Shown: positions 12,409-54,445 of the stretch, in pieces | Position numbering within the stretch: position 1 is the first letter of the stretch | Layout: every line of letters starts with the position of its first letter | Assembly: GCA_963705425.1 (NCBI GenBank) | Contig: CAVPJO010000006.1 | Span: 60,599 to 124,598 of the forward strand | Length of the DNA: 64,000 bases | Source of the DNA: an uncultured Chloroflexia bacterium | GTDB lineage: Bacteria > Chloroflexota > Limnocylindria > Limnocylindrales > CSP1-4 | Direction: 5' to 3' | The notes under the pieces: model-generated | Told to the model about the DNA's origin: nothing | The model's input: only the letters and a program-made list of their open reading frames with translations | The model's database searches: none | Position numbers and translations under genes: made by a program

Positions 12409-14796
12409 GTGATGAAGCCAGTCGCCCGCCGCGCAGGTCGTGCCCATGCCCCGATGCTGGGCCTGGTGCTGATGGTCGCGTTGTCGGCCCTGGCCACCGG
12501 GTCCGCTGCCAGCCCGGTCGCCGCACAGGAGGCGACCGACTGCGATCGCGGCTGGTTCGACGTCGAGTTGCGCGAAGACATCGCCCCCGAGGAGGTGGTG
12601 GCCCTCGCGGAGGACGAGATCTGGGTCGCCGGTGGGGCCATGCTGGGTGGCGGCCGGCGACAGGCGGTCACCCTGCACGGTGACGCCGACAGCTGGGACC
12701 TGCAGGTCCCGCCCGGACCCGACGAGCGCGACACGGGCTTCATGGGCATCGCCGCAGCGGGTCCCGGCCAGGACGTCTGGGCAGTCGGCTATGCGCGCGA
12801 GGTCGACTACGTCTCGGCCATGACCGCCGTTCGCCGCGAGGGTGGCTGGCATCTGACCGACGTCATGCGGCCCGGTGGCGAGGGCGCCACGCTGGTCGAC
12901 GTCGATGCTGCCCCGGGGGCGGGAGTGTGGGCGGCCGGCTTCATCCAGGGACCACCCGGCGACCAGCGAGCCTGGATGCTCGAGCGCGTCAACGACGGCT
13001 GGGAGGCGTCGCAACCACCCCTGGGCGACGGTGAGCGGGCCACGCTGGCCGGCCTGTCCGTCTCTGACGAAGGCGGGGTCTGGGGCGCCGGTACCGTCCT
13101 CAAGGGTCCCGGCATGCGGCCCTACCTCGTGCAGCGCATCGACGACGGTTGGCTGCGCCACGATGTGCCCGGGCTCGAGGGGGCAGCCCTGGCCGACATC
13201 GACGTCCCAGCCGTGGACGATGGCTGGGCCGTGGGGCACCGCCTCAGCGGCGAGACCATCGCACCGCTCATCCTGCACTGGGACGGAAACGCCTGGCTGG
13301 AAGCCGGGGGCCCGGACGTCGGCTCCGAAGCGACGTTGCTCACGAGCGTCGCGCGCGCCGAGGGCGTGCTCACGGTGGGCGGCACCACCTGGCACCCGGG
13401 CAAGGGCCGCTATGTCGGCTGGGTCGCCCGCGATGACGGTTCCGGCTGGACCGTGACGGTGTCGCGACCAGGCTGGGGCATGGGCACCGTCACCGACATC
13501 GACGGCGATCCGGGCACGAGCGGCTGGGTGGTCGGCCGCATGGACGAGGGTCTCATCGGGCGCGTCTGCGCCTCACCGTCTGCCCCGCTCGCAACGGAGG
13601 AGATCAAGCCCGCGACTCCGACCGGGGTCACGCCCCCCAGGGAGGCCACATCACCCAGCGCCATCGCGGGCGCGGTCGTCGCACTCGACGTGACCAAGGC
13701 GGCAGGCCTGCCCACCGAGAGCCAGAGCTGGGGCTCGGTCGCGGCCGACTTCGACGGTGACGGCCTCGATGACATCTTCCTCGGCCGCCATGGTGCCCGG
13801 GCAGCCCTGTACCTCAACGCCGGTGGCCGCTTCGAGGACAGCGAGCGCAAGTTCGGGGGCGGTGACCGTCACGGCTGCGTGGCCGGCGATGTCGACGGCA
13901 GCGGCCTGCCCGACCTGTACTGCTCGTTCGGCGCCTCTCGCGGCACCGGCACCAAGGCCAACCAGCTGTGGCTCGACCCGGGAGGCGCCACGCCCCAGGA
14001 GCACCCGCGAGCGGGAGGTGCCACCGAGCCACTGGGCCGCGGTCGTCAGGCGCGCCTCCTCGACATCGACGAGGACGGCCACGCCGATCTCCTCCTGGGC
14101 CAGGAGACCAAGCGCATGGACGGTCAGCCATCCACCAACCGGGCCTTCCTCAGAACCGGTCCAGCGCGCTTCGAAGCGGCCGAGATACCCGGCTTCGATA
14201 CGGGTCTGGCGACCGAGTCACTCGACATCGCCGACTACGACGGAGACGGGCGCGTAGATGTCCTGCTCGTGTACTACGACAAGCGCGCCGGGGAGCCCAA
14301 GGCCGGCATCCGTCTTTATCGCAACGAAGAGGGCCCCGCCTTCACCGATGTCACGGCGGAGGCCGGCATCGCGACCATCGACGAGCGCGACGCCGAGTTG
14401 AGGGACATGGACGGTGACGGACGGCCGGACCTGGTCCAGCTCTCCGAAGAGCGCGTCCTGGTGTCTGCCCTGCGCGACGGACGCTTCGAACCGATCTTCG
14501 AGCGGCACGTGGATTCAGCTGCGGCGCTGGCCACGGGTGACGCCGACGGGGACGGGGACCGTGACATCTACGTGCTGCAAGGCAAGTCGGACGAGGGCGC
14601 CCACGACCTCATCCTGCTCAACGACGGTGACGGTGCGTCATTCGTGGAACTGGCCGTGCCCGAGGTCAAGGGCGGCAGCGAGGACGACGTCGTGGCCCTC
14701 GACTACGACGGCGATGGGCGGACGGATTTCCTCGCCACCAACGGCCGCAACAGCGCACGCGGGCCCGTGCAGCTCATCACGCTGGGGCCCGCGTAG
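12409..14796 (+). CDS. Secreted FG-GAP/VCBS-repeat protein with N-terminal propeller-like repeats (795 aa)
   Basis: N-terminal signal peptide. The C-terminal half has at least 7 FG-GAP-type motifs (ADFDGDGLDDIFLG, GDVDGSGLPDLY, DIDEDGHADLLLG, DYDGDGRVDVLLV, DMDGDGRPDLVQ, GDADGDGDRDIYV, DYDGDGRTDFLA). No frameshifts. Confidence 0.8.
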   Translation: MMKPVARRAGRAHAPMLGLVLMVALSALATGSAASPVAAQEATDCDRGWFDVELREDIAPEEVVALAEDEIWVAGGAMLGGGRRQAVTLHGDADSWDLQVPPGPDERDTGFMGIAAAGPGQDVWAVGYAREVDYVSAMTAVRREGGWHLTDVMRPGGEGATLVDVDAAPGAGVWAAGFIQGPPGDQRAWMLERVNDGWEASQPPLGDGERATLAGLSVSDEGGVWGAGTVLKGPGMRPYLVQRIDDGWLRHDVPGLEGAALADIDVPAVDDGWAVGHRLSGETIAPLILHWDGNAWLEAGGPDVGSEATLLTSVARAEGVLTVGGTTWHPGKGRYVGWVARDDGSGWTVTVSRPGWGMGTVTDIDGDPGTSGWVVGRMDEGLIGRVCASPSAPLATEEIKPATPTGVTPPREATSPSAIAGAVVALDVTKAAGLPTESQSWGSVAADFDGDGLDDIFLGRHGARAALYLNAGGRFEDSERKFGGGDRHGCVAGDVDGSGLPDLYCSFGASRGTGTKANQLWLDPGGATPQEHPRAGGATEPLGRGRQARLLDIDEDGHADLLLGQETKRMDGQPSTNRAFLRTGPARFEAAEIPGFDTGLATESLDIADYDGDGRVDVLLVYYDKRAGEPKAGIRLYRNEEGPAFTDVTAEAGIATIDERDAELRDMDGDGRPDLVQLSEERVLVSALRDGRFEPIFERHVDSAAALATGDADGDGDRDIYVLQGKSDEGAHDLILLNDGDGASFVELAVPEVKGGSEDDVVALDYDGDGRTDFLATNGRNSARGPVQLITLGPA

Positions 14797-14855
14797 GTGC
14801 TTGGTTCGGGGCACCGCCCGGGCGCCCCCACAGGGGAGGCTACGAGACCGGGAGG

Positions 14856-15350
14856 CTAGGAGTCGTCACCCTGATGATCGAGGGCGTCCTGCAGGTGGGC
14901 CTCGGTCTCCGCGTCCAGGGTGGTCTGGTAGACCTTGCCCTTGTAGGGCTCGAGCGCGCCGACCACGGCCGACGCAGAGCCGCTGCCCACCACGAACAGG
15001 GCAGAGGTGTTCTCGGTCAGGTCGTTGGTCACATCGTTGATGAGATTCTTGTCGATGTTGTGGTGCAGCGAACGGCCGATCGCGCCGCCGACCAAGCCGC
15101 CGATGATCAAGCCGCCGACCGGAAAGAAGACGAGCCCGATGAGCAGGCCCAGGACCCCGCCGGTGATGGCGCCACCAGCGGTAGCGGTGTCCACGCCGTG
15201 ATGCACGTGGACCTTGCCGTCCGCGTCCTTCTCCACGACCGCCATGTCCGAGATGCTTGCCGCGTGGGCCTTCTGGATATCCTTCAGTCGCTGCCCGGCC
15301 TGTCCGGCCGTCTCACGCTCACCGAAGGTGATGACCAAGAGCTGGCTCAT
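14856..15350 (-). CDS. DUF1269-like glycine-zipper membrane protein
   Basis: GGGAG sits 7 nt upstream of ATG 15350. MSQLLVITFGERETAGQA...AITGGVLGLLIGLVFFPVGGLIIGGLVGGAIG glycine zipper. Confidence 0.55.
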   Translation of the reverse strand: MSQLLVITFGERETAGQAGQRLKDIQKAHAASISDMAVVEKDADGKVHVHHGVDTATAGGAITGGVLGLLIGLVFFPVGGLIIGGLVGGAIGRSLHHNIDKNLINDVTNDLTENTSALFVVGSGSASAVVGALEPYKGKVYQTTLDAETEAHLQDALDHQGDDS

Positions 15351-15435
15351 ATGTGATCTCCCTATCGTTTGGTAAGGGAGTGTACGTCGCGGCGGACGCC
15401 GTGACCAGTCGCACAGGCACCGCTGCGGCCGCCCC

Positions 15436-16044
15436 TCAGGTGCGCTCGAGCACGACCTCGTTGACGGCACCGCGGACGATGGTCCAGGCGCGCAGCTCGG
15501 GCGGCTCCACCGCGAACGAGGCCAGCAGGTAGATGGCCTCCGGGAAGGCCGCCAGGCCGATGTCCGTGGGCGACGGACTCGGCGGTGAGGCCACGTGTGA
15601 GTGGACGATGGCCCACACCACCTCGTCGTTCTCGTCGATCTGCTCCAGCAGCTCGAGCTGCTCCATGGGGTCCATCAGGTAGCGGTACGGCGACTCAGCC
15701 ACGTTGCGCATGCCCACGAAGCGCGAGGGCACGCCGCCATCTTCGGCGACCCGGTCGGCAACCAGCACGCCGCAGCCCTCGTTGGGCAGCGCAGCACGGA
15801 GCCAGGACACGACCTGCGCGCGGACGGCTGCCGGGATGCGAGCAGAGGCCGGCACCCACGGTGGTCCGCCGTCCGGCGCTGGTCCACCGCCGGCCATGCG
15901 CCGGCCCTCCGCCAGGCCACGATCGGCGGCCCGCTGCCAGGCCTCGACCTCAGGCACGACCTGACCGCCACCGCTGACCGCGGGCTCATCTGCCGATGAG
16001 AGCACCTCGGGTGCGCGGTCGGGGCGCCGCGGGTCGCTCACCAC
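15436..16044 (-). CDS. mec: JAMM/MPN+ metalloprotease Mec+-like (CysO-cysteine peptidase). The start is uncertain and may be at 15897
   Basis: JAMM motif AIVHSHVASPPSPSPTD and upstream EGCGVL. Sits immediately downstream of cysM and cysO. Confidence 0.7.
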   Translation of the reverse strand: MVSDPRRPDRAPEVLSSADEPAVSGGGQVVPEVEAWQRAADRGLAEGRRMAGGGPAPDGGPPWVPASARIPAAVRAQVVSWLRAALPNEGCGVLVADRVAEDGGVPSRFVGMRNVAESPYRYLMDPMEQLELLEQIDENDEVVWAIVHSHVASPPSPSPTDIGLAAFPEAIYLLASFAVEPPELRAWTIVRGAVNEVVLERT

Positions 16045-17057
16045 AGGTTGAGGCTGTCGATGTCATCGCCCTCGGCGTCGAGATCGCGGGTCCAGACGTC
16101 TTCGCTGAGGTACTTCCAGCCACCGTCGGCAAGCAGGGCCACGATGGTGCCGCGCTCCATCTCGCGGGCCAGCTGCTTGGCCGCCACCATCACCGCCCCG
16201 CAGGAGACACCGGCGAAGATGCCCTCCTTCTCGGTCAGCTCACGCAGGGACTCGATGGCCTCGGTGTTGGAGACCAGGAACTTGCCGTCGATGACGGTCG
16301 GGTCGAAGATCTCGGGAATGAAGCCCTCGTCGAGCGAGCGCAAGCCCTGCACCGTCTCCCCGGGCAATGGCTCGGCGGCGTAGATGCGCACCTCGGGATT
16401 GTGCCGGCGCAAGCGTCGGCCTACACCCATCAAGGTGCCGCCCGTGCCCAGACCGGCCACGAAGGCATCGACCTCGGGGCAATCGGCGATGATCTCCTCG
16501 GCCGTGGTCTCCTCGTGCGCACGGGGATTGGCCGGGTTGCCGTACTGGTACGGCATCACGAAGCGCGAGTCCTTGGCCACGAGGTGCTTGGCCAGGGCCA
16601 CGGCACCGTTGGAGCCGAGATGGCCGGGCGAGTCGATGACCTCAGCGCCGAACAGGGCCAGCAGCTGCCGGCGCTCCATGGTCACGTTGTCGGGCACGAC
16701 CACGGCCACTCGATAGCCCTTGCGCCGCGCGATCATGGCCAGGCCGATGCCCGTGTTGCCGCTGGTCGGCTCGATGATGATCGAGTCCGGCCGCAACCGG
16801 TCGGAGGCTGCGAGGTCCTCCATGAGGTACTTGGCCACGCGGTCCTTGACCGAGCCTGTCGGGTTCATGAACTCGAGCTTGGCGTAGAGGCGCACGTTGG
16901 GATTGGGGCAGACGTTGGGCACCTCGACGAGCGGGGTGAAGCCGATGGCATCGACGATGCTCGGGAAGCGTCCGCCGTGCCGCGCGTTACCGCCGTGGGC
17001 GTGCGGCCGGAGCGCGTCGACCTCGGCGCCTGACTGTCGTTCCGTCGTCGAAGTCAC
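16038..17057 (-). CDS. cysM: Cysteine synthase CysM-type (PLP-dependent O-phospho-serine sulfhydrylase family)
   Basis: GSVKDRVAKYLMEDL (PLP lysine), GNTGIGLAM and GLGTGGTLMGVG motifs. Intact 339-aa ORF. Confidence 0.85.
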   Translation of the reverse strand: MTSTTERQSGAEVDALRPHAHGGNARHGGRFPSIVDAIGFTPLVEVPNVCPNPNVRLYAKLEFMNPTGSVKDRVAKYLMEDLAASDRLRPDSIIIEPTSGNTGIGLAMIARRKGYRVAVVVPDNVTMERRQLLALFGAEVIDSPGHLGSNGAVALAKHLVAKDSRFVMPYQYGNPANPRAHEETTAEEIIADCPEVDAFVAGLGTGGTLMGVGRRLRRHNPEVRIYAAEPLPGETVQGLRSLDEGFIPEIFDPTVIDGKFLVSNTEAIESLRELTEKEGIFAGVSCGAVMVAAKQLAREMERGTIVALLADGGWKYLSEDVWTRDLDAEGDDIDSLNLW

Positions 17058-17072
17058 GACGAGCAGACCTCG

Positions 17073-17348
17073 CTAGCGACCCCCGGCCATGGCCGGCAGC
17101 AGGATGATCTCGTCGCTGTCACCGACCGGCGTGGCCAGCTCCTGCTCGTAGCGCACATCACGTCCGTTGACGTAGACGTTGACGAAGCGGTTGAGTGAAC
17201 CGTCCTCGCTGAAGATCTGTTCTCGCAGACCGGGGAACTGCTCGAGCAACAAATCGAGGGACTCGCCGACGGTGGAGCCGGTGACCTCGACCTTCTTCTG
17301 GTTGCCGGCCTGCGCGCGCAGCACCGGCGGGATCCGGACCGCAGTCAT
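17073..17348 (-). CDS. cysO: ThiS/MoaD-fold sulfur carrier protein CysO-like, ending GG-R
   Basis: 91-aa ORF ending ...DEIILLPAMAGGR*. ATGA overlap with the upstream E1-like gene. Next to cysM and the JAMM gene. Confidence 0.75.
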   Translation of the reverse strand: MTAVRIPPVLRAQAGNQKKVEVTGSTVGESLDLLLEQFPGLREQIFSEDGSLNRFVNVYVNGRDVRYEQELATPVGDSDEIILLPAMAGGR

Positions 17349-18529
17349 GCGTTCACCCCCATCGTGACGGCTGGAGTGGTGGGCAGTGCGAAGACGCCGT
17401 CACCAGCCGGCTCGGCGCTCTCGCCGTCGCCGCAGGCCGGGCACTTCGGGTCGCGCTGTAGCCGGAGCTCGCTGAAGGCCCCGTCGAGCGCATCGTAGAT
17501 GAGCAGTCGCCCGCTGAGCAAATCGCCGATGTCGAGCAGGACCTTGAGGCCCTCTGTGGCCTGCAGCAGGCCCATCACGCCGGGCACCACGCCGAGCACA
17601 CCGGCCACCGAGCAGCCGGGCGCCAGCTCGGGCGGCGGAGGTGTGGGGTACAGGCAGCGATAGCAGGGGCCCCGGTTGGGCTTGAACACCGTGAGCTGGC
17701 CCTCGAAGCGGAAGACCGAGGCATGGACCACGGTGATGCCCGCCTTGACCGCGGCGTCGTTGAGCACGTAGCGGGTCTCGAAGGTGTCGGTGCCGTCGAA
17801 GATGAGGTCGTAGCCGGCAATCAGCTCCTCGACGTTGTCGGGCCCCAGCATGACCTCGCGGGCCACGACCTTGACGTCGGGATTCAGGTCGGCGATGGTC
17901 ATCTTGGCCAATTCCACCTTGCGCATGCCGACGCGGTCGGTGCGATGGATGATCTGGCGCTGCAGGTTGGAGGCATCGACGACGTCGAAGTCGACGATGC
18001 CGATGGTGCCCACACCGGCCGCGGCCATGTACAACATGGCCGGCGAACCGAGCCCACCGGCGCCGATGAAGAGGACCTTCGAGTCGAGCAGCCGGGCCTG
18101 ACCTTCGACCCCGACTTCGGGGATGAGCAGGTGCCGCGAGTAGCGCGCCTTCTGCTCGCTGCTCAGCACGGTGGGCTGCTCCCAGGCGCGACCCTCGGAC
18201 TTCCATGCCTGGAAGCCGCCGCTCATGGAGGCGACGCTGGTGTAGCCCATCTCCAGCAGCGTCTGGCCGGCGAAGAGCGAGCGGATGCCGCCGGCGCAAT
18301 AGACGACGATGGGTGCCGCGCGGTCGGGTGCGAGCGCTTCGATGTCCTGCTCGATGTAGGACTTGGAGAGGTGCCGCGCACCGCCGGCGTGGCCCTGCTC
18401 CCACTCGCTTTGCTCGCGCACATCGAGAAGGATGGCGCCACGCTGAGCGGCCTGTTCAGCTTGCGCCGTGGTCACCTCACGGACCTGCGCTCGTGCCTCG
18501 GCGAGGAGGTCTCGGTATGACTTGGTCAT
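17345..18529 (-). CDS. Rhodanese-E1 (ThiF/MoeB) fusion adenylyltransferase/sulfurtransferase, MoeZ-like but with the rhodanese domain at the N-terminus
   Basis: N-terminal rhodanese domain with the active-site loop VVYCAGGIRS. E1 Rossmann motif LFIGAGGLGSPA. Two CxxC pairs (CYRC, CPAC). Confidence 0.85.
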   Translation of the reverse strand: MTKSYRDLLAEARAQVREVTTAQAEQAAQRGAILLDVREQSEWEQGHAGGARHLSKSYIEQDIEALAPDRAAPIVVYCAGGIRSLFAGQTLLEMGYTSVASMSGGFQAWKSEGRAWEQPTVLSSEQKARYSRHLLIPEVGVEGQARLLDSKVLFIGAGGLGSPAMLYMAAAGVGTIGIVDFDVVDASNLQRQIIHRTDRVGMRKVELAKMTIADLNPDVKVVAREVMLGPDNVEELIAGYDLIFDGTDTFETRYVLNDAAVKAGITVVHASVFRFEGQLTVFKPNRGPCYRCLYPTPPPPELAPGCSVAGVLGVVPGVMGLLQATEGLKVLLDIGDLLSGRLLIYDALDGAFSELRLQRDPKCPACGDGESAEPAGDGVFALPTTPAVTMGVNA

Positions 18530-18661
18530 CGGGGGTGGGACTCCGTAGTGGCTCGACTCGGGCTGTCGATGCGGGGAAGTGGCACGGTCTTCGGCGGCCG
18601 GCCTATGAAGCCGGCCCGCGACACGCGCATGACCCCCTGACCATGGCCTCGTGCATGGCGG

Positions 18662-19072
18662 TCATATCCTGGCCTCCGATGCACCGGACGCGGCCTGCTC
18701 GCCATCGCGCTCCTTGAGCGCGCGCTGCAGTGTCTCCAGTGAAAGCAGCGCGCACTTCAGGCGCGCCGGGCTGATCTCGATGCCCAGCAGATCGAGGATG
18801 TCCTGGTTCTTCATGGCCTCCACCTCGGCCACCGAGCTTCCCTTGATCTCGTCGGTGAGCAGCGACGCGGAGGCCTGGCTGATGGCACAGCCGCGCCCGC
18901 TGAATGCCACGTCGGCCACGTTGCCGGCGTCGTCGACGATGAGCATCATGGTGATGCGGTCACCGCACAGCGGGTTGTGGCCTTCGTGGACGGCAGTGGG
19001 CGCGTCCAGCGTGCCGAAGTTGTGGGGCGCTCGGTAGTGCTCGAGGATCTCGTCGCGGTAGAGGTCGTCCAT
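18662..19072 (-). CDS. sufU: SufU-type Fe-S cluster assembly sulfur-transfer scaffold
   Basis: PLCGDRITMM, GRGCAISQASASL and KCALL ligand motifs. Confidence 0.85.
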   Translation of the reverse strand: MDDLYRDEILEHYRAPHNFGTLDAPTAVHEGHNPLCGDRITMMLIVDDAGNVADVAFSGRGCAISQASASLLTDEIKGSSVAEVEAMKNQDILDLLGIEISPARLKCALLSLETLQRALKERDGEQAASGASEARI

Positions 19073-19108
19073 GGGCCTGTGCAGGGTACTCGATGCGGTG
19101 GCTGGCTT

Positions 19109-20395
<1,287 letters not shown>

Positions 20396-20424
20396 CGCTC
20401 AGCCAGCTGGCTGCTCGGGTCGAG

Positions 20425-21342
20425 CTACTCCTCCCCGCCTTCGAGGCGTTCGATCTCGGGGTCCTCCTCGAGCGCCTCGATGTCGAAGCCGGCCTCGCTG
20501 AGGATGGGCGCATAGCCCTCGTCCTCGAGTCGCAGGGCGAGGTCCTTGCCACCCGAGGCGATGATCTGGCCGTGCGCGAGCACGTGCACCCGGTCGGGCT
20601 GGATGTAGTTGAGCAGGCGCTGGTAGTGGGTGATGAGCAGCACGCCGAGGTCGGGGCTGAGCTGGGCGTTGACGCCCTCGGCCACGATGCGCAGGGCGTC
20701 GATGTCCAGACCCGAATCGGTCTCGTCGAGGATCGCGAACTCCGGCTCGAGGATGGCCATCTGCAGCATCTCGAGGCGCTTCTTCTCGCCGCCTGAGAAA
20801 CCCTCGTTGACATAGCGTCCAGCGAATAAATCGTCGAGATGGAGCAGCTCCATCTTGTCGCGCATGAGCTTGCGGAACTCGCCCATCTTGATGCCGCCCC
20901 TGGTCATGTCCGAAGGGTCGATCTCACCGTCGCCGGCGTCGAGGCCGCGACGGCGTGCGTTCAGTGCAGTGCGCAGGAAGGAGGCCACCGACAGGCCGGG
21001 CACGGCGGTGGGGTACTGGAAGGCCAGGAAGAGGCCCAGGCGAGCGCGCTTGTCCGGGGAAAGCGCCAGGATGTCGATGCCCTTCCAGGTGACTTCGCCA
21101 CTGGTGACCACGTAGGCGGGGTGACCCATGAGCGCATAGGCGAGCGTGGTCTTGCCTGAGCCGTTACGGCCCATGATGGCGTGGACTTCGCCCTTGCTGA
21201 TCTCGAGGTCGATGCCGCGCAGGATCTCGATGTCCGGGTTGGCGGTGGGCACCACGTGCAGATCGCGGATGACCAGCACGCGGTCGTCGGCCACGACGTC
21301 GGTGGCGGTGGTGCCCTGCAGGGTGGCGGTGTCGTTGGTCAT
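20425..21342 (-). CDS. sufC: Fe-S cluster assembly ATPase SufC
   Basis: EVHAIMGRNGSGKTTL, FSGGEKKRLEMLQM and AILDETDSGLD. ATGA overlap with the upstream Rrf2 gene. Confidence 0.9.
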   Translation of the reverse strand: MTNDTATLQGTTATDVVADDRVLVIRDLHVVPTANPDIEILRGIDLEISKGEVHAIMGRNGSGKTTLAYALMGHPAYVVTSGEVTWKGIDILALSPDKRARLGLFLAFQYPTAVPGLSVASFLRTALNARRRGLDAGDGEIDPSDMTRGGIKMGEFRKLMRDKMELLHLDDLFAGRYVNEGFSGGEKKRLEMLQMAILEPEFAILDETDSGLDIDALRIVAEGVNAQLSPDLGVLLITHYQRLLNYIQPDRVHVLAHGQIIASGGKDLALRLEDEGYAPILSEAGFDIEALEEDPEIERLEGGEE

Positions 21343-21872
21343 GGCTGGGCGACGGGCTCCTTGATGGGTCGCTCGGTGAGCGGCTGGACGGCCACGAGGG
21401 CCGGGTCGGGATGGGCGGGATGGCCGGAGCGGGGCTCGGCAAGCTCCTCGAGGGTCATGGAGTCGAGCGCAGCGACGATGGCCTCACGGACGCGCTGCCA
21501 GAGGCGTTCGACGTTGCAGAAACCGGCACGCTGGCAGATCTCGGCGTGGAGGGGGTCGTCGCTGGCGCAGATCATCGGGGCGATGGGCCCCTCGAGTGCG
21601 GTGATGACCTCGCTCATGTGGACGTCAGCCGGGGGCCGGGACAGCTCGTAGCCGCCGTGAGCACCGCGGGTGCTGGTCACCAGACCGACCTCACGAAGGC
21701 TCACCACCAGCTGCTCAAGATAGGGGCGCGGCAGTGCCTCGTGGTCGGCCATCTCGGAGAGGCTCACAGGCCCGCTGCCGTAGTGGCGGGCGAGCTCGAC
21801 CATGAGCCGCACTCCGTATTCCCCACGCGTGGAGAAATGGAGGGCTCCCGAGGTCGGGACGGTGGTACGCAC
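21339..21872 (-). CDS. Rrf2-family transcriptional regulator (IscR/SufR-like); start is approximate
   Basis: HFSTRGEYGVRLMVELARHYG winged-helix N-terminus. Cys residues (C...C.....C) for a possible Fe-S ligand set. Confidence 0.7.
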   Translation of the reverse strand: MRTTVPTSGALHFSTRGEYGVRLMVELARHYGSGPVSLSEMADHEALPRPYLEQLVVSLREVGLVTSTRGAHGGYELSRPPADVHMSEVITALEGPIAPMICASDDPLHAEICQRAGFCNVERLWQRVREAIVAALDSMTLEELAEPRSGHPAHPDPALVAVQPLTERPIKEPVAQP

Positions 21873-21965
21873 GGTGCTCAGACTGGTCTCCTGCTCGCCG
21901 GGCCGACTGGGGTGCCACTGGGCGTGCGCACCCGGCAATTCCGACTGAATTCGTCAGGATTGAGT

Positions 21966-22292
21966 CTAGACCTGCGGCGTCCGTGCGTCAACGCTGCCAG
22001 GAGCCGAGCTCGCATGTCTCGTCGCCGAGACCCTCGACGAGCCCGACGACATCGCCGGCCCTTGGGTCGACCGCGGCCAGCCGCCAGGCACCAGCCCGAC
22101 CGCGTCCAGGAACCCGCACGAGCCGACGAACGAGCGGTCCGTGGCGACGTCGAAGGCGACGAGACCGGCATCGTCACGGTTGACGTCGGCGTCGGCGATC
22201 AGTGCAGCGAAATCACTGTCGGCAAGTGTGGCATCGAGGGCTTCCATCGAGTGTGAGGATGTCCAGGACGGCGAGGGCGCGGGGCCGGCCAC
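21966..22292 (-). CDS. Hypothetical protein
   Basis: ORF with coding-like amino acid composition between the Rrf2 and GNAT genes. No recognisable motif. Confidence 0.2.
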   Translation of the reverse strand: MAGPAPSPSWTSSHSMEALDATLADSDFAALIADADVNRDDAGLVAFDVATDRSFVGSCGFLDAVGLVPGGWPRSTQGPAMSSGSSRVSATRHASSAPGSVDARTPQV

Positions 22293-22384
22293 TCATCGGT
22301 CGCCTCTGGCGTCATGGAGTGCTGGGTCTAGCAGCCCGATGTTTGACATGGCCTGATGCAGATCGGAGCCATGACCGTGCTGGC

Positions 22385-23053
22385 CTACCGTCCCTTGGTA
22401 TCGCCGCGCGGGACGTCTGGCCTGGGTTCCACGGCCAGTCGCATCGTCGTTGAGGCTGAGAACCCCATGAGGCGGCTCAGGTACGGGGTACGCTCGGTCT
22501 TGACCGGCTCGAAGCCGACTCGTTCATAGAGGGCATGCGCACCCGGGTTGGTGTCGACGACGTCGAGACTGATGGACGTGCACCCAAGCGCGTCAGCCAG
22601 CGTCACGAGTTCGGCAAGTAGCCGCGTACCCACGCCCTGGCCCCGCCAGCTCTCCTCGACCACGATGCCATCCATGAGGAGTTCTCGGTCGTGCGGTTGA
22701 CGCTCCAGCAGGGCAAGTACTGCCAGCTTCGGCAGCCCTCGGATCCAGCCATACGCTCGCAGGACATCGGCGGCGGACACATCCGTGAGTGCTCGGCCGT
22801 CGTGATGGTATCCGGCGAGACCGATCAGCCGGCCGTCGGCCACAGCGACGACGGCGCGATCGCGGTTCAGGTGCTGCGCGATGAACCGCGTTCCCTTGTC
22901 TGGTGGACCCAATGGGTATCCGAGCTTGCGTCCGAAGGCTTGCCAGTACAGCTCGGCGGCTGCCGGCTCTTGCCCTTCGCGTAGTCCGCGCCGGATGACG
23001 ATGGCGCTCGAGCAATTCTCCTGCTCCACGACATCGACTCCCCTGTCTTCCAT
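22385..23053 (-). CDS. GNAT family N-acetyltransferase
   Basis: VVEESWRGQGVGTRLLAEL acetyl-CoA binding motif (Q/RxxGxG/A). Confidence 0.7.
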   Translation of the reverse strand: MEDRGVDVVEQENCSSAIVIRRGLREGQEPAAAELYWQAFGRKLGYPLGPPDKGTRFIAQHLNRDRAVVAVADGRLIGLAGYHHDGRALTDVSAADVLRAYGWIRGLPKLAVLALLERQPHDRELLMDGIVVEESWRGQGVGTRLLAELVTLADALGCTSISLDVVDTNPGAHALYERVGFEPVKTERTPYLSRLMGFSASTTMRLAVEPRPDVPRGDTKGR

Positions 23054-51973: not shown

Positions 51974-54445
51974 GTGTCGCCGTTTCGATCGTCGCTTCGC
52001 CGCATCGTCCTTGGAGGCAGCTTCCGAGGACGATTCGGCCGCGCCTCAGTGCTCACCGCACTGGCACCCCTGCTGGCGCTGGCCCTGGTCTTCGTGACGT
52101 CGGCGCGAACCGATCTCGAAGGCGTGGCCAGAGAAAACCTGGCGAACCAGGCGCGCCTCCAGGCGACTGCGGTGGACAGCGTCCTCAAGAACGCAAGCGA
52201 GGCCGTGGGGGTGCTGGCGGCCAATCCCATCCTCCGCGATGAGGATGCGGAACCGGAACAGATCCGTCAGCAGCTCGACGCCTATAGCCAGTTCGACGAG
52301 ATCGTGCTCTTGCACCCGGCCGGAGTGGTCATCGAGGCTACGTCGTATCGCTTCTCCGGCCGTTGGGATGCGAACGCCGCCTTCCGTGGCGCGATGGCGG
52401 GGCGACAGGTCATGACACCGCCGCTCTTCTATTCCGATCCAGATCGACTCGTCGTTGAGCACGCCGCTCCGGTCATCAGAGACGGTGACGTCGTGGCCGT
52501 GGTCGTGGGTACCATGAACATGGATCGCGTTTGGCAGGCCCTCGACGACGTCACCATCGGGCGGTCCGGCTACTTCGCTGCATTCGACCAGCATGGCAAT
52601 GTCATCGCACACCCGGACAAGTCGCTGGTCCTCCGGAAGTTGGAGGGCTTCCCGTCCTCGAGCGATGGCTCGAGCGAGACTCCCGTTCGATACGTTCAGC
52701 CCGATGGAACGGCCCAGGTCGGCTACAGCGTGACCGTCCCATCCTCCGGGTGGCGCGTGGCTGCGCTCGAGCCGGAGGACGAGGCCTACGCTATCGCAGA
52801 TACGGCGGTGTCCAGGGTCTGGCTCGTGGCCATCGTGGCCCTGTTGATCGCGCTCGGCACGGTGCTCGTCGTGTCCCGCGCGGTCTCCAAGCCGATGGAG
52901 ACGGTGAACATGGCCATGCGCAGCATCGCCGACGGCCACCTGGAGCAGCGGGTCCGACCGGCAGGACTCGAAGAGATCGACCGGCTGGCGGGCTCGTTCA
53001 ACGCGATGGCCGCCGAGCTGGAGGAGCGCAGCGCTCTGCTGGATGCGGAGATGGCCGAGCGCGACCGCGCCGAGCAGCGCATCAAGTACCAGGCCTATCA
53101 CGACCCCTTGACCGGTCTGCCCAACCGGATGCTACTCAAGGATCGCCTGGACCTGGCCCAGGCGGATGCGCGTCGAAGCGGCGAAGCGTTGGCCCTGATG
53201 TTCCTCGACCTGGATCGCTTCAAGCTGGTCAACGATTCGATGGGTCACACGTTCGGCGACGAGCTGCTCTTGAGTGTCGCCGATCGGATCACCAGCGAGC
53301 TGCGGGAGGGTGATTCGGTGGCCCGTGTGGGTGGCGACGAATACGTCCTGTTGCTGCCGCGCGTGTCGGGCCCGGAAGAGGCCCTCGCGGCTGCTCACCG
53401 GGTCGTCGAGAGTCTGCGCGTGCCCTGGGAGGTGGACGGCAGGGAGTTCCACCTCACGGCCAGTATCGGGATCGCGTTGTACCCCGGTGACGGGGTCGAT
53501 GCCGAGTCGCTGATGCGGAACGCCGACACCGCCATGTATCAGGCCAAGGAAGAGGGGCGGGACCGCATCCGGGTCTTCCGAGCCGAGATGGACGAGAGCG
53601 TCCAGCAACGGGTGAGGCTCGAGCAGGACCTGCGCCTCGCGCTGCAGCTGGAGCAGTTCGTGCTCCACTACCAGCCCCTGGTCCATTCCGATACGGGTCG
53701 CGTCACCGGCATGGAAGCGCTGCTGCGCTGGGACTGTCCCAAGCGTGGACTCGTGCCCCCGGACAGGTTCATCTCCCTCGCCGAAGAGACCGGTCTCATC
53801 TGGGAACTCGGCCGCTGGGTGCTCAGGACGGCCTGCGCCCAGGTCCAGGCCTGGACCGCATCCGGGCAGATCGATAGCTTGTCGGTGTCTGTGAATGTCT
53901 CGGCTCGGCAGTTCCATGACATGGGCATCGTCGACGAGGTCCAAAGCGCCCTGGCCGAGACGGGCCTGCCTCCAGGCCAACTCGAGCTCGAGATCACCGA
54001 GAGCACCGCGATGCGCGACGTCGAGCACAGCATACGAACGCTCACCCGGCTCAGGGAGATGGGTGTGCGCGTGTCGATCGACGACTTCGGTACCGGCTAC
54101 TCCTCGCTCTCATACCTCAAACGGTTCCCGGTCGACATCGTCAAGATCGACCGCTCATTCGTGATGGACATCTCCCACGACCCCGATGATGCCGCCATCG
54201 TGGCCGCCATCATCGCCCTGGCCAGGAGCCTCAAGATGGAAACCGTGGCCGAAGGGGTCGAAACGGACGAACAACTCGCATTCCTGCAGGCGCACGGTTG
54301 CCCGTCATTCCAGGGGTTCCTCTTCAGCAAGGCACTGCCCCCAGCGGAACTGGTTCGACTGCTGGCCGACGGCGCATTCCGGGAATCCGAGCCGCGCGAC
54401 ACGACGATGCCAGCGCTCCGGCGGCAGCTCGCGCTCAGCCAGTAG
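51974..54445 (+). CDS. Membrane-bound sensory GGDEF-EAL protein (periplasmic Cache-like domain, HAMP, diguanylate cyclase and phosphodiesterase domains), MbaA-like
   Basis: TM helix, an about 250-aa periplasmic domain and a second TM helix. HAMP. RVGGDEYVLLL (GGDEY variant). EAL domain with GMEALLRW, DDFGTGYSSL and KIDRSFV. 823 aa, intact. Confidence 0.9.
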   Translation: MSPFRSSLRRIVLGGSFRGRFGRASVLTALAPLLALALVFVTSARTDLEGVARENLANQARLQATAVDSVLKNASEAVGVLAANPILRDEDAEPEQIRQQLDAYSQFDEIVLLHPAGVVIEATSYRFSGRWDANAAFRGAMAGRQVMTPPLFYSDPDRLVVEHAAPVIRDGDVVAVVVGTMNMDRVWQALDDVTIGRSGYFAAFDQHGNVIAHPDKSLVLRKLEGFPSSSDGSSETPVRYVQPDGTAQVGYSVTVPSSGWRVAALEPEDEAYAIADTAVSRVWLVAIVALLIALGTVLVVSRAVSKPMETVNMAMRSIADGHLEQRVRPAGLEEIDRLAGSFNAMAAELEERSALLDAEMAERDRAEQRIKYQAYHDPLTGLPNRMLLKDRLDLAQADARRSGEALALMFLDLDRFKLVNDSMGHTFGDELLLSVADRITSELREGDSVARVGGDEYVLLLPRVSGPEEALAAAHRVVESLRVPWEVDGREFHLTASIGIALYPGDGVDAESLMRNADTAMYQAKEEGRDRIRVFRAEMDESVQQRVRLEQDLRLALQLEQFVLHYQPLVHSDTGRVTGMEALLRWDCPKRGLVPPDRFISLAEETGLIWELGRWVLRTACAQVQAWTASGQIDSLSVSVNVSARQFHDMGIVDEVQSALAETGLPPGQLELEITESTAMRDVEHSIRTLTRLREMGVRVSIDDFGTGYSSLSYLKRFPVDIVKIDRSFVMDISHDPDDAAIVAAIIALARSLKMETVAEGVETDEQLAFLQAHGCPSFQGFLFSKALPPAELVRLLADGAFRESEPRDTTMPALRRQLALSQ

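Follow-up and report, generated by a model that had tools for sequence, protein, structure and literature searches.

Predicted CysO/CysM/Mec-type cysteine-synthesis operon with a Gly-Gly-Arg carrier and an N-terminal-rhodanese E1 in a Limnocylindria-type Chloroflexota genome

How does a sulfur carrier that is encoded with an arginine after its Gly-Gly end take part in cysteine synthesis, and do this tail and the domain order of the neighbouring activating enzyme make the locus something new? The window, the whole 64,000-nucleotide stretch of DNA that was analysed, carries four adjacent genes that raise the question. Judged by its sequence, the locus is a cysteine-synthesis operon of the ordinary protein-thiocarboxylate (CysO/CysM/Mec) type in a Chloroflexota (Limnocylindria-type) genome. 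Our whole reading, to which we give a probability of about 0.72, is of an M. tuberculosis CysO/CysM/Mec-type operon that would have its own in-operon E1 and a pro-form carrier trimmed by the JAMM peptidase. The features of the operon are:

15436..16044, minus strand: mec-like JAMM/MPN+ metallopeptidase, 202 aa (Prok-JAB; solved-structure matches 2kks and PfJAMM1)
15562..15603, minus strand: JAMM zinc-site motif HSHVASPPSPSPTD, residues 148-161 (sequence motif)
16038..17057, minus strand: cysM, predicted CysM-type (O-phosphoserine) PLP sulfhydrylase (PALP, GTG start)
17073..17348, minus strand: cysO, 91-aa ThiS/MoaD-fold sulfur carrier (Pfam ThiS; 3dwg_C match)
17076..17078, minus strand: CGC codon of the extra C-terminal Arg91, after Gly89-Gly90 (TAG at 17073-17075)
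17345..18529, minus strand: E1, 394 aa, rhodanese plus ThiF/MoeB adenylation domain (Pfam Rhodanese, ThiF; NF006444)
17435..18142, minus strand: ThiF/MoeB adenylation domain, E1 residues 130-365 (Pfam ThiF, 1.4e-81)
18197..18466, minus strand: rhodanese domain, E1 residues 22-111 (Pfam Rhodanese, 3.6e-19)

The initial annotation gave the gene order as rhodanese-E1, cysO, cysM, JAMM, and all four genes lie in that order on the minus strand. Chance does not explain the cluster, since 73 of 80 related genome loci have the four genes in this order; most of the loci that depart from it are contigs ending early. The claimed ATGA coupling holds at the E1/cysO junction, where the cysO start codon overlaps the E1 stop (17345-17348), and this 4-nt overlap is retained in almost all of the 80 loci. 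The other two junctions differ: a 15-nt gap containing GAGG separates cysO from cysM, and cysM overlaps the JAMM gene through GTGGTGA, by 4 nt or 7 nt according to the GTG that is taken as the start.

This four-gene operon type was already catalogued in 2006. Operon type 4c of Iyer, Burroughs & Aravind (ThiS/MoaD, E1-rhodanese, JAB and cysteine synthase; PMC1779556) has the same gene content, and the genomes listed for it include Chloroflexus aurantiacus. In its text, the 2006 paper gives E1-like enzymes of these operons a carboxyl-terminal rhodanese, unlike the E1 here, and leaves domain order and tail extensions undiscussed for subtype 4c.

The assignment to a CysO-type cysteine pathway is borne out by the carrier and the PLP enzyme. 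The carrier matches PF02597 (ThiS) at 1.6e-13 (51.4 bits, cut-off 22.5), and M. tuberculosis CysO heads its solved-structure matches (3dwg_C, 1.4e-18), with the ThiS/MoaD-family protein 4n6e_B in second place. CysM is a fold-type II PLP enzyme (PF00291, PALP; 2.3e-69, 234.4 bits) with its Schiff-base lysine in S69-V-K-D-R, and is closest among solved structures to M. tuberculosis CysM (3dwg_A, 4.5e-90), a cysteine synthase coming next (1.1e-73). Its Arg240 stands at the position of the O-phosphoserine-binding Arg220 of the M. tuberculosis enzyme, GLRS aligning with ALRN. It scores under the cut-off of TIGR01136 cysKM (330 bits against 344.15) and of all the cysK and cysM equivalogs, models that are centred on O-acetylserine enzymes.

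M. tuberculosis CysO-CysM-Mec with MoeZ(R) (Rv1334-1336 plus Rv3206c; PDB 3DWG; chemistry summarised in PMC3227635) thus provides the closest solved carrier and PLP enzyme, and shares with the present operon the Arg220 equivalent and an adjacent JAMM gene. The two systems differ in several respects. The present operon encodes its own E1, which has an N-terminal rhodanese and, like MoeB, both CxxC pairs; its carrier ends in GG-R, whereas that of M. tuberculosis ends in GG; and the operon follows Rrf2-sufC-sufS-sufU and lacks the actinobacterial ClpS and helical-protein genes.

The JAMM protein matches PF14464 (Prok-JAB) at 6e-16 (58.8 bits, cut-off 25) and its site is intact, with E89 in NEGCG and H148-S-H150-x7-S158-x2-D161. 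The JAB core covers approximately residues 70-190 and is preceded by an N-terminal extension of about 68 residues, conserved in 47 homologues. One JGI source names the protein '[CysO sulfur-carrier protein]-S-L-cysteine hydrolase'.

Several family models suggest a different use of the same genes. The carrier passes the archaeal SAMP1 equivalog NF041918 (70.8 bits, cut-off 60), the E1 hits the SAMP-activating UbaA model at 325.6 bits, short of the cut-off of 450, and the best NCBIfam match of the JAMM protein is desampylase (67.8 bits, below the cut-off of 130), with PfJAMM1 among its structure matches; relatives in the E1 family also serve other MoaD/ThiS carriers beside YcaO/TfuA RiPP genes. 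The carrier might then be mainly a SAMP/TtuB-like modifier or a multi-purpose sulfur carrier, activated by the E1 for conjugation or other thiolations, with cysteine only one output and the JAMM protein a processing and deconjugating peptidase. We consider this unlikely. The UbaA and desampylase scores are both under cut-off, the solved structure closest to the carrier is that of CysO bound to CysM, and an E2-like gene or target gene is absent. The carrier gene is locked between E1 and cysM in 73 of 80 genomes, and its linkage to cysM and the JAMM gene is seen in the window and in 73 of the 80 related genomes.

The E1 appears fully equipped. The rhodanese active-site loop C78-A-G-G-I-R-S (CxGGxRS) and the ATP-binding glycine motif GAGGLG at residue 156 are intact, both CxxC pairs (C289YRC and C363PAC) and Cys305 are present, and the protein aligns colinearly with E. 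coli ThiF and MoeB, the equivalent of ThiF-Cys184 being intact. It ends in a 26-aa clade-specific tail. The rhodanese domain does precede the ThiF domain, as had been claimed (residues 22-111 and 130-365, by Pfam), but such an E1 is not a novel twist, being covered already by the curated NCBIfam family NF006444 (PRK08762, 'molybdopterin-synthase adenylyltransferase MoeB'). The match is full-length and colinear (539.8 bits, cut-off 449; residues 5-371 on model positions 3-372 of 387), and in proteobacterial members (44-53% identity) the rhodanese likewise comes before ThiF. We rejected an assignment as MoeZ/MoeZR/MoeBR: the rhodanese precedes ThiF rather than being C-terminal, and the MoeZ equivalog NF005902 is matched below cut-off (353.1 bits against 647) in two separate stretches. 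The name of NF006444 implies molybdopterin synthesis, whereas the partner at the present locus is CysO; the partner carriers of Rhizobium and Mycetohabitans lie within YcaO/TfuA/LanM clusters.

The carrier's end reads ATG GCC GGG GGT CGC TAG (LLPAMAGG-R), in agreement with the AMAGGR end first described. As encoded it therefore lacks a free Gly-Gly C-terminus: GG is invariant, yet Arg91 follows it, and the free terminus would be exposed only by trimming. The 120 closest homologues in the database (84-100% identity) all have a length of 91 aa and an invariant GG, and residue 91 is R in 110, C in 5, S in 2 and V, H and E in one each. GG-R is also found in 15 independent genome assemblies, with the arginine codon CGC or CGG followed by TAG. 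It had been allowed that a sequencing error might hide an earlier stop, an idea that arginine in 110 of 120 homologues and 15 assemblies contradicts. Use of GG-R untrimmed, or an artefact of assembly or annotation, is extremely improbable, and nothing we found supports it. The same tail, with CGC or CGG and then TAG, recurs across the 110 database sequences and the 15 assemblies; sister genomes with the same operon encode a carrier that ends in plain GG; and E1 adenylation in ThiF/MoeB systems takes place, by an established mechanism, on the terminal glycine carboxylate (PMC3227635).

The comparison with related genomes bears directly on the fate of the extra residue. Across 79 related genomes that share the operon, the carrier ends in GG in 42, GG-R in 15, GG-A in 8 and GG-C and GG-T in one each; the remaining tails are longer and unrelated (AG, AGDAG, ANAR, APR, ATH, ARGER and EGRER, for example). 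This pattern fits a dispensable pro-peptide. Since the tail within one and the same operon can be absent, R, A, C, T or a longer unrelated peptide, the comparative data favour removal of the extra residue. Extensions after GG are also common among the 50%-identity cluster representatives of the carrier; arginine is the commonest one-residue extension, found in 12 of the 22 representatives that have one. CysO-CysM and CysO-E1 fusions, which also need cleavage after GG, occur among these representatives.

From its context and from precedents, we infer that the adjacent JAMM protein is the obvious trimmer. The contrast that had been drawn with mycobacterial Mec, as acting only after cysteine transfer, is smaller than implied, because Mec hydrolyses the same peptide bond, the one between GG and a single following residue, when it frees Cys from CysO-Cys. 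The adduct of CysO and cysteine is split in this way by Mec (PMC3227635), and 5 of the 120 close homologues, with Cys at residue 91, encode CysO-Cys, the literal Mec substrate.

Removal of the arginine might instead fall to a general carboxypeptidase or aminoacyl hydrolase of the cell, with the JAMM protein serving as Mec only, after cysteine transfer. The JAMM gene stands equally beside carriers that end in GG (42 of 79), so the Mec role is enough to account for its presence; as it is there with or without an extension, co-occurrence cannot separate a maturase from a Mec role. We nevertheless regard this alternative as quite improbable. The accepted JAMM reaction at Gly-Gly|Cys is chemically the same as that at Gly-Gly|Arg, while the longer tails and the CysO-CysM and CysO-E1 fusions need an endopeptidase that cuts after GG, which a carboxypeptidase would not do. 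JAMM proteins do such trimming for QbsE (reported) and CxnE (proposed), and DRJAMM cleaves a MoaD-MoaE fusion (PMC8832034).

Trimming of GG-extended carriers by JAMM proteins is not new, with QbsE/QbsD reported and other carriers proposed or shown. In the thioquinolobactin (QbsE/QbsD/QbsC) and chuangxinmycin (CxnE/CxnF) systems, the residues after GG are CF or a decapeptide, a JAMM gene lies in the cluster, and GG is exposed for the E1 by QbsD (reported) or CxnF (proposed) (PMC5925218). These are secondary-metabolite pathways, with a C-terminal rhodanese on the E1 and a JAMM protein that has no product-release role, and so differ from the present operon. What the locus shares with such pro-carrier and JAMM maturase pairs is a clade-conserved Arg91 after GG and a JAMM gene in the same operon. 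The precedent that comes closest to a one-residue cap is HcyS-Ala of Wolinella succinogenes. HcyS is reportedly made with one extra alanine after GG, which the JAMM-type metalloprotease of its operon is said to remove before adenylation. That pathway reportedly yields homocysteine through an O-acetylhomoserine sulfhydrylase, in a sulfate-assimilation context and with an E1 that lacks rhodanese. The HcyS-Ala/HcyD/HcyF/MetY homocysteine pathway is that of Krishnamoorthy & Begley (JACS 2011, cited in PMC5764234).

A further relative is Thermomicrobium sp. 4228-Ro (RefSeq; GCA_026241205.1; carrier WP_265940685.1), which has cysM, a GG-R cysO, a JAMM gene and a Rhodanese-ThiF E1 of 58.5% identity. 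Its cysO overlaps the JAMM start codon (CGGTGA). The order differs from that here, being cysM-cysO-JAMM with a divergent E1; suf genes are not alongside and the JAMM protein lacks the N-terminal extension.

Our observations concern gene content, intact motifs, orthology-level CysO and CysM similarity, operon conservation, and the conservation and variability of the tail; from these we infer the chemical steps of the following cycle, the identity of the trimming enzyme, the CysM substrate and the sulfur donor. CysO would be translated as a pro-form ending in Gly-Gly-Arg, mimicking the normal Mec substrate, and the JAMM protein (Mec) would hydrolyse the Gly90-Arg91 bond to expose the Gly-Gly carboxylate. 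The ThiF domain of the E1 would adenylate the exposed terminal glycine, and a persulfide on Cys78 of the fused rhodanese would convert the CysO adenylate to CysO-COSH. CysM would form a PLP-aminoacrylate, probably from O-phosphoserine, which CysO-COSH would attack; an S-to-N acyl shift would then give CysO-Gly-Gly-Cys. The same JAMM protein would hydrolyse Gly-Gly|Cys, releasing L-cysteine and regenerating CysO. With JAMM in both steps, maturation and product release would be one activity, the removal of a single residue from GG.

Arginine is kept in 92% of the close homologues with synonymous CGC and CGG codons, and so could have a function beyond being discarded. A speculative and improbable extension is that the cap is selectively maintained, rather than a neutral leftover, as a gate on entry of CysO into the cycle. 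New CysO would undergo no adenylation, thiocarboxylation or conjugation until the Mec hydrolase was present and active, tying entry to the enzyme that closes the cycle, possibly via the clade-specific N-terminal extension of the JAMM protein. Arginine in 92% of the clade, its place as the commonest single-residue extension and its occurrence in Thermomicrobium are compatible with such a gate.

The GG-R tail and the N-terminal rhodanese are both real and conserved. As novel twists, which is how they had been presented, they do not hold up, as public databases already contain both and biochemically close cases are known for each. The locus is of practical use chiefly to annotation. The CysO/CysM/Mec route, best known from M. 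tuberculosis, is standard and tightly conserved in Limnocylindria-type soil and freshwater Chloroflexota, where the operon is linked to Rrf2-sufC-sufS-sufU. Genes for CysO-type carriers very often encode a further residue or peptide after GG, and a non-GG terminus should therefore not be read as a sign of a pseudogene or non-carrier. NF006444 (PGAP name MoeB) pairs with CysO here and stands beside MoaD/ThiS carriers on Rhizobium and Mycetohabitans plasmids; with CysO and YcaO/TfuA/LanM-cluster carriers as partners, the family name looks too narrow. Trimming, if true, would give the Mec hydrolase two functions, one in maturation and one in product release, a tidy but expected result.

The genes around the operon are:

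14856..15356, minus strand: DUF1269 glycine-zipper membrane protein (Pfam DUF1269), directly downstream of the JAMM gene
18662..19072, minus strand: sufU (TIGR01994 SufU, 113.9 bits, cut-off 92.5)
19109..20395, minus strand: sufS cysteine desulfurase (TIGR01979, 553.3 bits, cut-off 475.1)
20425..21342, minus strand: sufC ATPase (TIGR01978, 312.9 bits, cut-off 212.8)
21339..21938, minus strand: Rrf2-family regulator heading the gene string (closest to CymR and IscR)

It is uncertain whether the DUF1269 protein belongs to the system. Its gene lies downstream of the operon in the closest relatives only (loci L002-L016). On the other side, sufU lies 132 nt upstream of the E1 gene in the window and immediately upstream of E1 in 78 of the 80 loci. 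A promoter-like site is present at 21963-21991, by the gene for the Rrf2-family regulator.

The operon consists of four co-directional genes on the minus strand:

17345-18529, minus strand: E1 activating enzyme, 394 aa, with Pfam Rhodanese at residues 22-111 and ThiF at residues 130-365
17073-17348, minus strand: ThiS/MoaD-family sulfur carrier (cysO), 91 aa
16038-17057, minus strand: PLP enzyme (cysM), 339 aa
15436-16044, minus strand: Prok-JAB protein (JAMM), 202 aa

Gene content, coordinates, domains and the carrier end, as described in the initial annotation, all proved correct, and its observation of a CysO-type cluster is confirmed. It had also proposed ATGA coupling along the gene string. 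This holds for the E1/cysO junction, where ATGA at 17345-17348 overlaps the E1 stop with the cysO start, but not for the other two: a 15-nt gap that includes GAGG lies between cysO and cysM, and cysM overlaps the JAMM gene through GTGGTGA.

The gene set would, judged by its homologies, carry out M. tuberculosis-type CysO/CysM/Mec chemistry. The best solved-structure match of the carrier was M. tuberculosis CysO in the CysO-CysM complex (3dwg_C, 1.4e-18), followed by the ThiS/MoaD-family protein 4n6e_B; an exact-sequence look-up of the carrier returned no record. The PLP enzyme matched M. tuberculosis CysM at 4.5e-90, ahead of another cysteine synthase in second place at 1.1e-73, and retains the lysine motif SVKDR and an arginine aligned with CysM Arg220, in structural work on that enzyme reportedly the phosphate-binding residue. 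The JAMM protein has its zinc-site residues in place (E89 and H148-S-H-x7-S-x2-D161), matched the solved structures 2kks and PfJAMM1, and has a homologue named "[CysO sulfur-carrier protein]-S-L-cysteine hydrolase" by one JGI source. The M. tuberculosis chemistry is summarised in PMC3227635; in contrast to that system, the activating enzyme is here encoded within the operon.

Relatives of the E1 were sought in a single genome of each species; over 500 turned up, and the best 80 were compared. These share 68-91% identity and all come from Chloroflexota metagenome-assembled genomes, labelled Limnocylindrales, Limnocylindria, Chloroflexia or Anaerolineae. Mapping the window's proteins onto the 80 loci placed cysO directly after the E1 gene in 79, with the 4-nt overlap retained in nearly all, and sufU immediately upstream of it in 78. 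cysM was present in 77 and the JAMM gene adjacent in 73, the exceptions being mostly contigs that end early. This conserved order shows that the operon is stable and excludes a chance juxtaposition. The G+C content of the window is 65-73%; an actinobacterial origin, hinted at by a value of 69%, is ruled out by the close loci, which are all Chloroflexota of the Limnocylindria type.

The carrier gene ends ATG GCC GGG GGT CGC TAG, giving M-A-G-G-R-stop. The closest 120 database homologues (84-100% identity) all have a length of exactly 91 aa and an invariant Gly89-Gly90; at position 91, 110 have R, five C, two S and one each V, H and E. GG-R was also encoded in 15 independent genomes, as CGC, or CGG in a deeper branch, followed by TAG. 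The initial annotation had considered that the true stop might lie before the Arg through a sequencing error; the homologues and the 15 genomes contradict this, and an error of sequencing or assembly at the stop is ruled out.

In the broader operon family, the carrier tail proves labile. GG ends the carrier at 42 loci, GG-R at 15, GG-A at eight and GG-C and GG-T at one each, and longer, unrelated tails (AG, AGDAG, AGEAG, ANAR, APR, ATH, ARGER and EGRER) occur once each. Among 140 representatives of 50%-identity clusters with an alignable GG, 24 stop at GG, 22 carry a single further residue (R in 12), 29 have 2-5, 16 have 6-20 and 49 have longer extensions. The last group includes genuine CysO-CysM and CysO-E1 fusions, while some of its members are probably gene-call artefacts. 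In the natural fusions, GG is followed directly by CysM (representatives P0215 and P0241) or by E1 (P0261), an arrangement in which release would need an endoproteolytic cut after GG.

A constant GG whose appendage varies and is often missing is characteristic of a removed segment. ThiF/MoeB enzymes adenylate a terminal glycine carboxylate, and by this established mechanism the residue or residues after GG would have to be removed first. The JAMM protein is the natural candidate for trimming CysO-GGR. The accepted Mec substrate is CysO-Gly-Gly-Cys, after an S-to-N acyl shift, and its hydrolysis removes one residue after GG. Since the CysO-Gly-Gly-Arg bond is the same bond, the JAMM protein would hydrolyse Gly-Gly|Arg as Mec does Gly-Gly|Cys; the five close homologues with GG-C encode literally the Mec substrate. 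Longer tails and fusions would need an endopeptidase cutting after GG, a job reported for JAMM enzymes of related systems. In the work of Krishnamoorthy and Begley in 2011, the one extra Ala of Wolinella HcyS is reportedly cleaved off by HcyD. QbsD has been reported to trim CF from QbsE and CxnF proposed to remove a decapeptide from CxnE (PMC5925218), and a MoaD-MoaE fusion is cleaved by DRJAMM (PMC8832034). As far as sequence analysis reaches, the interpretation in the initial annotation, that the Arg is removed before adenylation with the JAMM peptidase a plausible maturase, is supported.

The JAMM gene is nearly always present in the compared loci, also beside GG-ended carriers, so its co-occurrence with tail extensions cannot separate a maturase role from a Mec role in releasing the product from CysO-Cys. 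Public databases already contain both the GG-R tail and the N-terminal rhodanese, and direct mechanistic precedents exist for both. Some novelty would attach only to a reading in which the Arg cap is under functional selection to gate CysO activation, which we regard as improbable.

The JAMM protein has an N-terminal extension of about 68 aa (residues 1-68, 15841-16044, minus strand), in which V14, E20-P21-A22, P31, V33, W36-Q37, A39-A40, P62-W63 and P65-A66-S67 show no variation across 47 homologues. Its segment EPAVSGGG loosely resembles the CysO tail LPAMAGG. The idea that the extension is a docked pseudo-substrate found no support: in the AlphaFold2 model residues 1-61 have pLDDT below 50, except for a low-confidence helix at 33-50, and do not dock on the core. 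The extension occurs in the GG-R clade and at three loci with GG or GG-T tails; as two of its loci (L018 and L025) have GG-ended carriers, it is not specific to GG-R.

In the genome of a cultured organism, Thermomicrobium sp. 4228-Ro (GCA_026241205.1), cysM, cysO with GG-R and the JAMM gene follow one another in that order (locus L084, 4026-7036). The last two are translationally coupled through CGGTGA, where the GTG that starts the JAMM gene shares bases with the Arg and stop codons of cysO. The Thermomicrobium E1 has the same Rhodanese-ThiF architecture at 58.5% identity, but the gene is divergent there.

The E1 aligns colinearly with E. coli ThiF and MoeB and retains GAGGLG, both CxxC zinc pairs and a cysteine aligned with ThiF Cys184; the rhodanese catalytic loop is C78-A-G-G-I-R-S. 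With the rhodanese first, its domain order is the reverse of MoeZ/MoeBR, as originally noted, and the MoeZ model NF005902 scored 353 against a cut-off of 647, matching in two separate stretches. NCBIfam NF006444 (PRK08762) matched over the whole protein length with 539.8 bits (cut-off 449). Colinear homologues (44-53% identity), annotated MoeB, lie on plasmids of Piscinibacter, Mycetohabitans, Rhizobium, Sinorhizobium and Paraburkholderia. The NF006444 match and the proteobacterial and Thermomicrobium homologues rule out a new architecture. A search of searchable papers found no biochemical study of this order, which is catalogued in databases yet apparently uncharacterised. The operon type, which combines ThiS/MoaD, E1-rhodanese, JAB and cysteine synthase, appears as row 4c of a 2006 listing that has Chloroflexus aurantiacus as one of its examples (PMC1779556).

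Two E1 relatives with the PGAP name MoeB (48-50% identity; L082 3843-6146, Rhizobium plasmid, and L083 4706-6137, Mycetohabitans plasmid) adjoin a MoaD/ThiS gene within YcaO/TfuA/LanM RiPP-type clusters. The equivalog name "MoeB" of NF006444 looks too narrow for the family. The 26-aa C-terminal tail of the E1, GESAEPAGDGVFALPTTPAVTMGVNA (residues 369-394, 17345-17425, minus strand), has counterparts only in the closest clade (L001-L016); the alignment of remoter relatives reaches only to about residue 366-391.

On its own strand the E1 gene is preceded by the string Rrf2-sufC-sufS-sufU (18662-21938, minus strand), whose Rrf2 regulator most resembles CymR and IscR, at scores below cut-off; sufB and sufD were found neither in this string nor among the other scanned ORFs of the window. 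A promoter and terminator scan, with counts near shuffle expectation, gave one promoter-like site before the Rrf2 gene and no convincing site within the operon. In Rfam, the 132-nt sufU-E1 spacer and the rest of 14500-22500 yielded no more than two chance matches, both below threshold. The sufU-E1 adjacency suggests either that cysteine supply is co-regulated with Fe-S assembly or that SufS/SufU serve as sulfur donor to the rhodanese. As SufS consumes cysteine, the linkage may, speculatively, couple an oxidation-tolerant supply of cysteine to Fe-S cluster assembly; an equally speculative alternative has SufS and SufU feeding the rhodanese persulfide.

Directly downstream of the JAMM gene is a DUF1269 glycine-zipper membrane protein (14856-15356, minus strand), its position retained in loci L002-L016 but not in remoter operons. 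A 795-aa FG-GAP/VCBS-repeat protein (12409-14796, plus strand) converges on the downstream end of the operon, and an 823-aa dCache-HAMP-GGDEF-EAL signalling protein (51974-54445, plus strand) lies in a lower-G+C part of the window (0.62-0.66).
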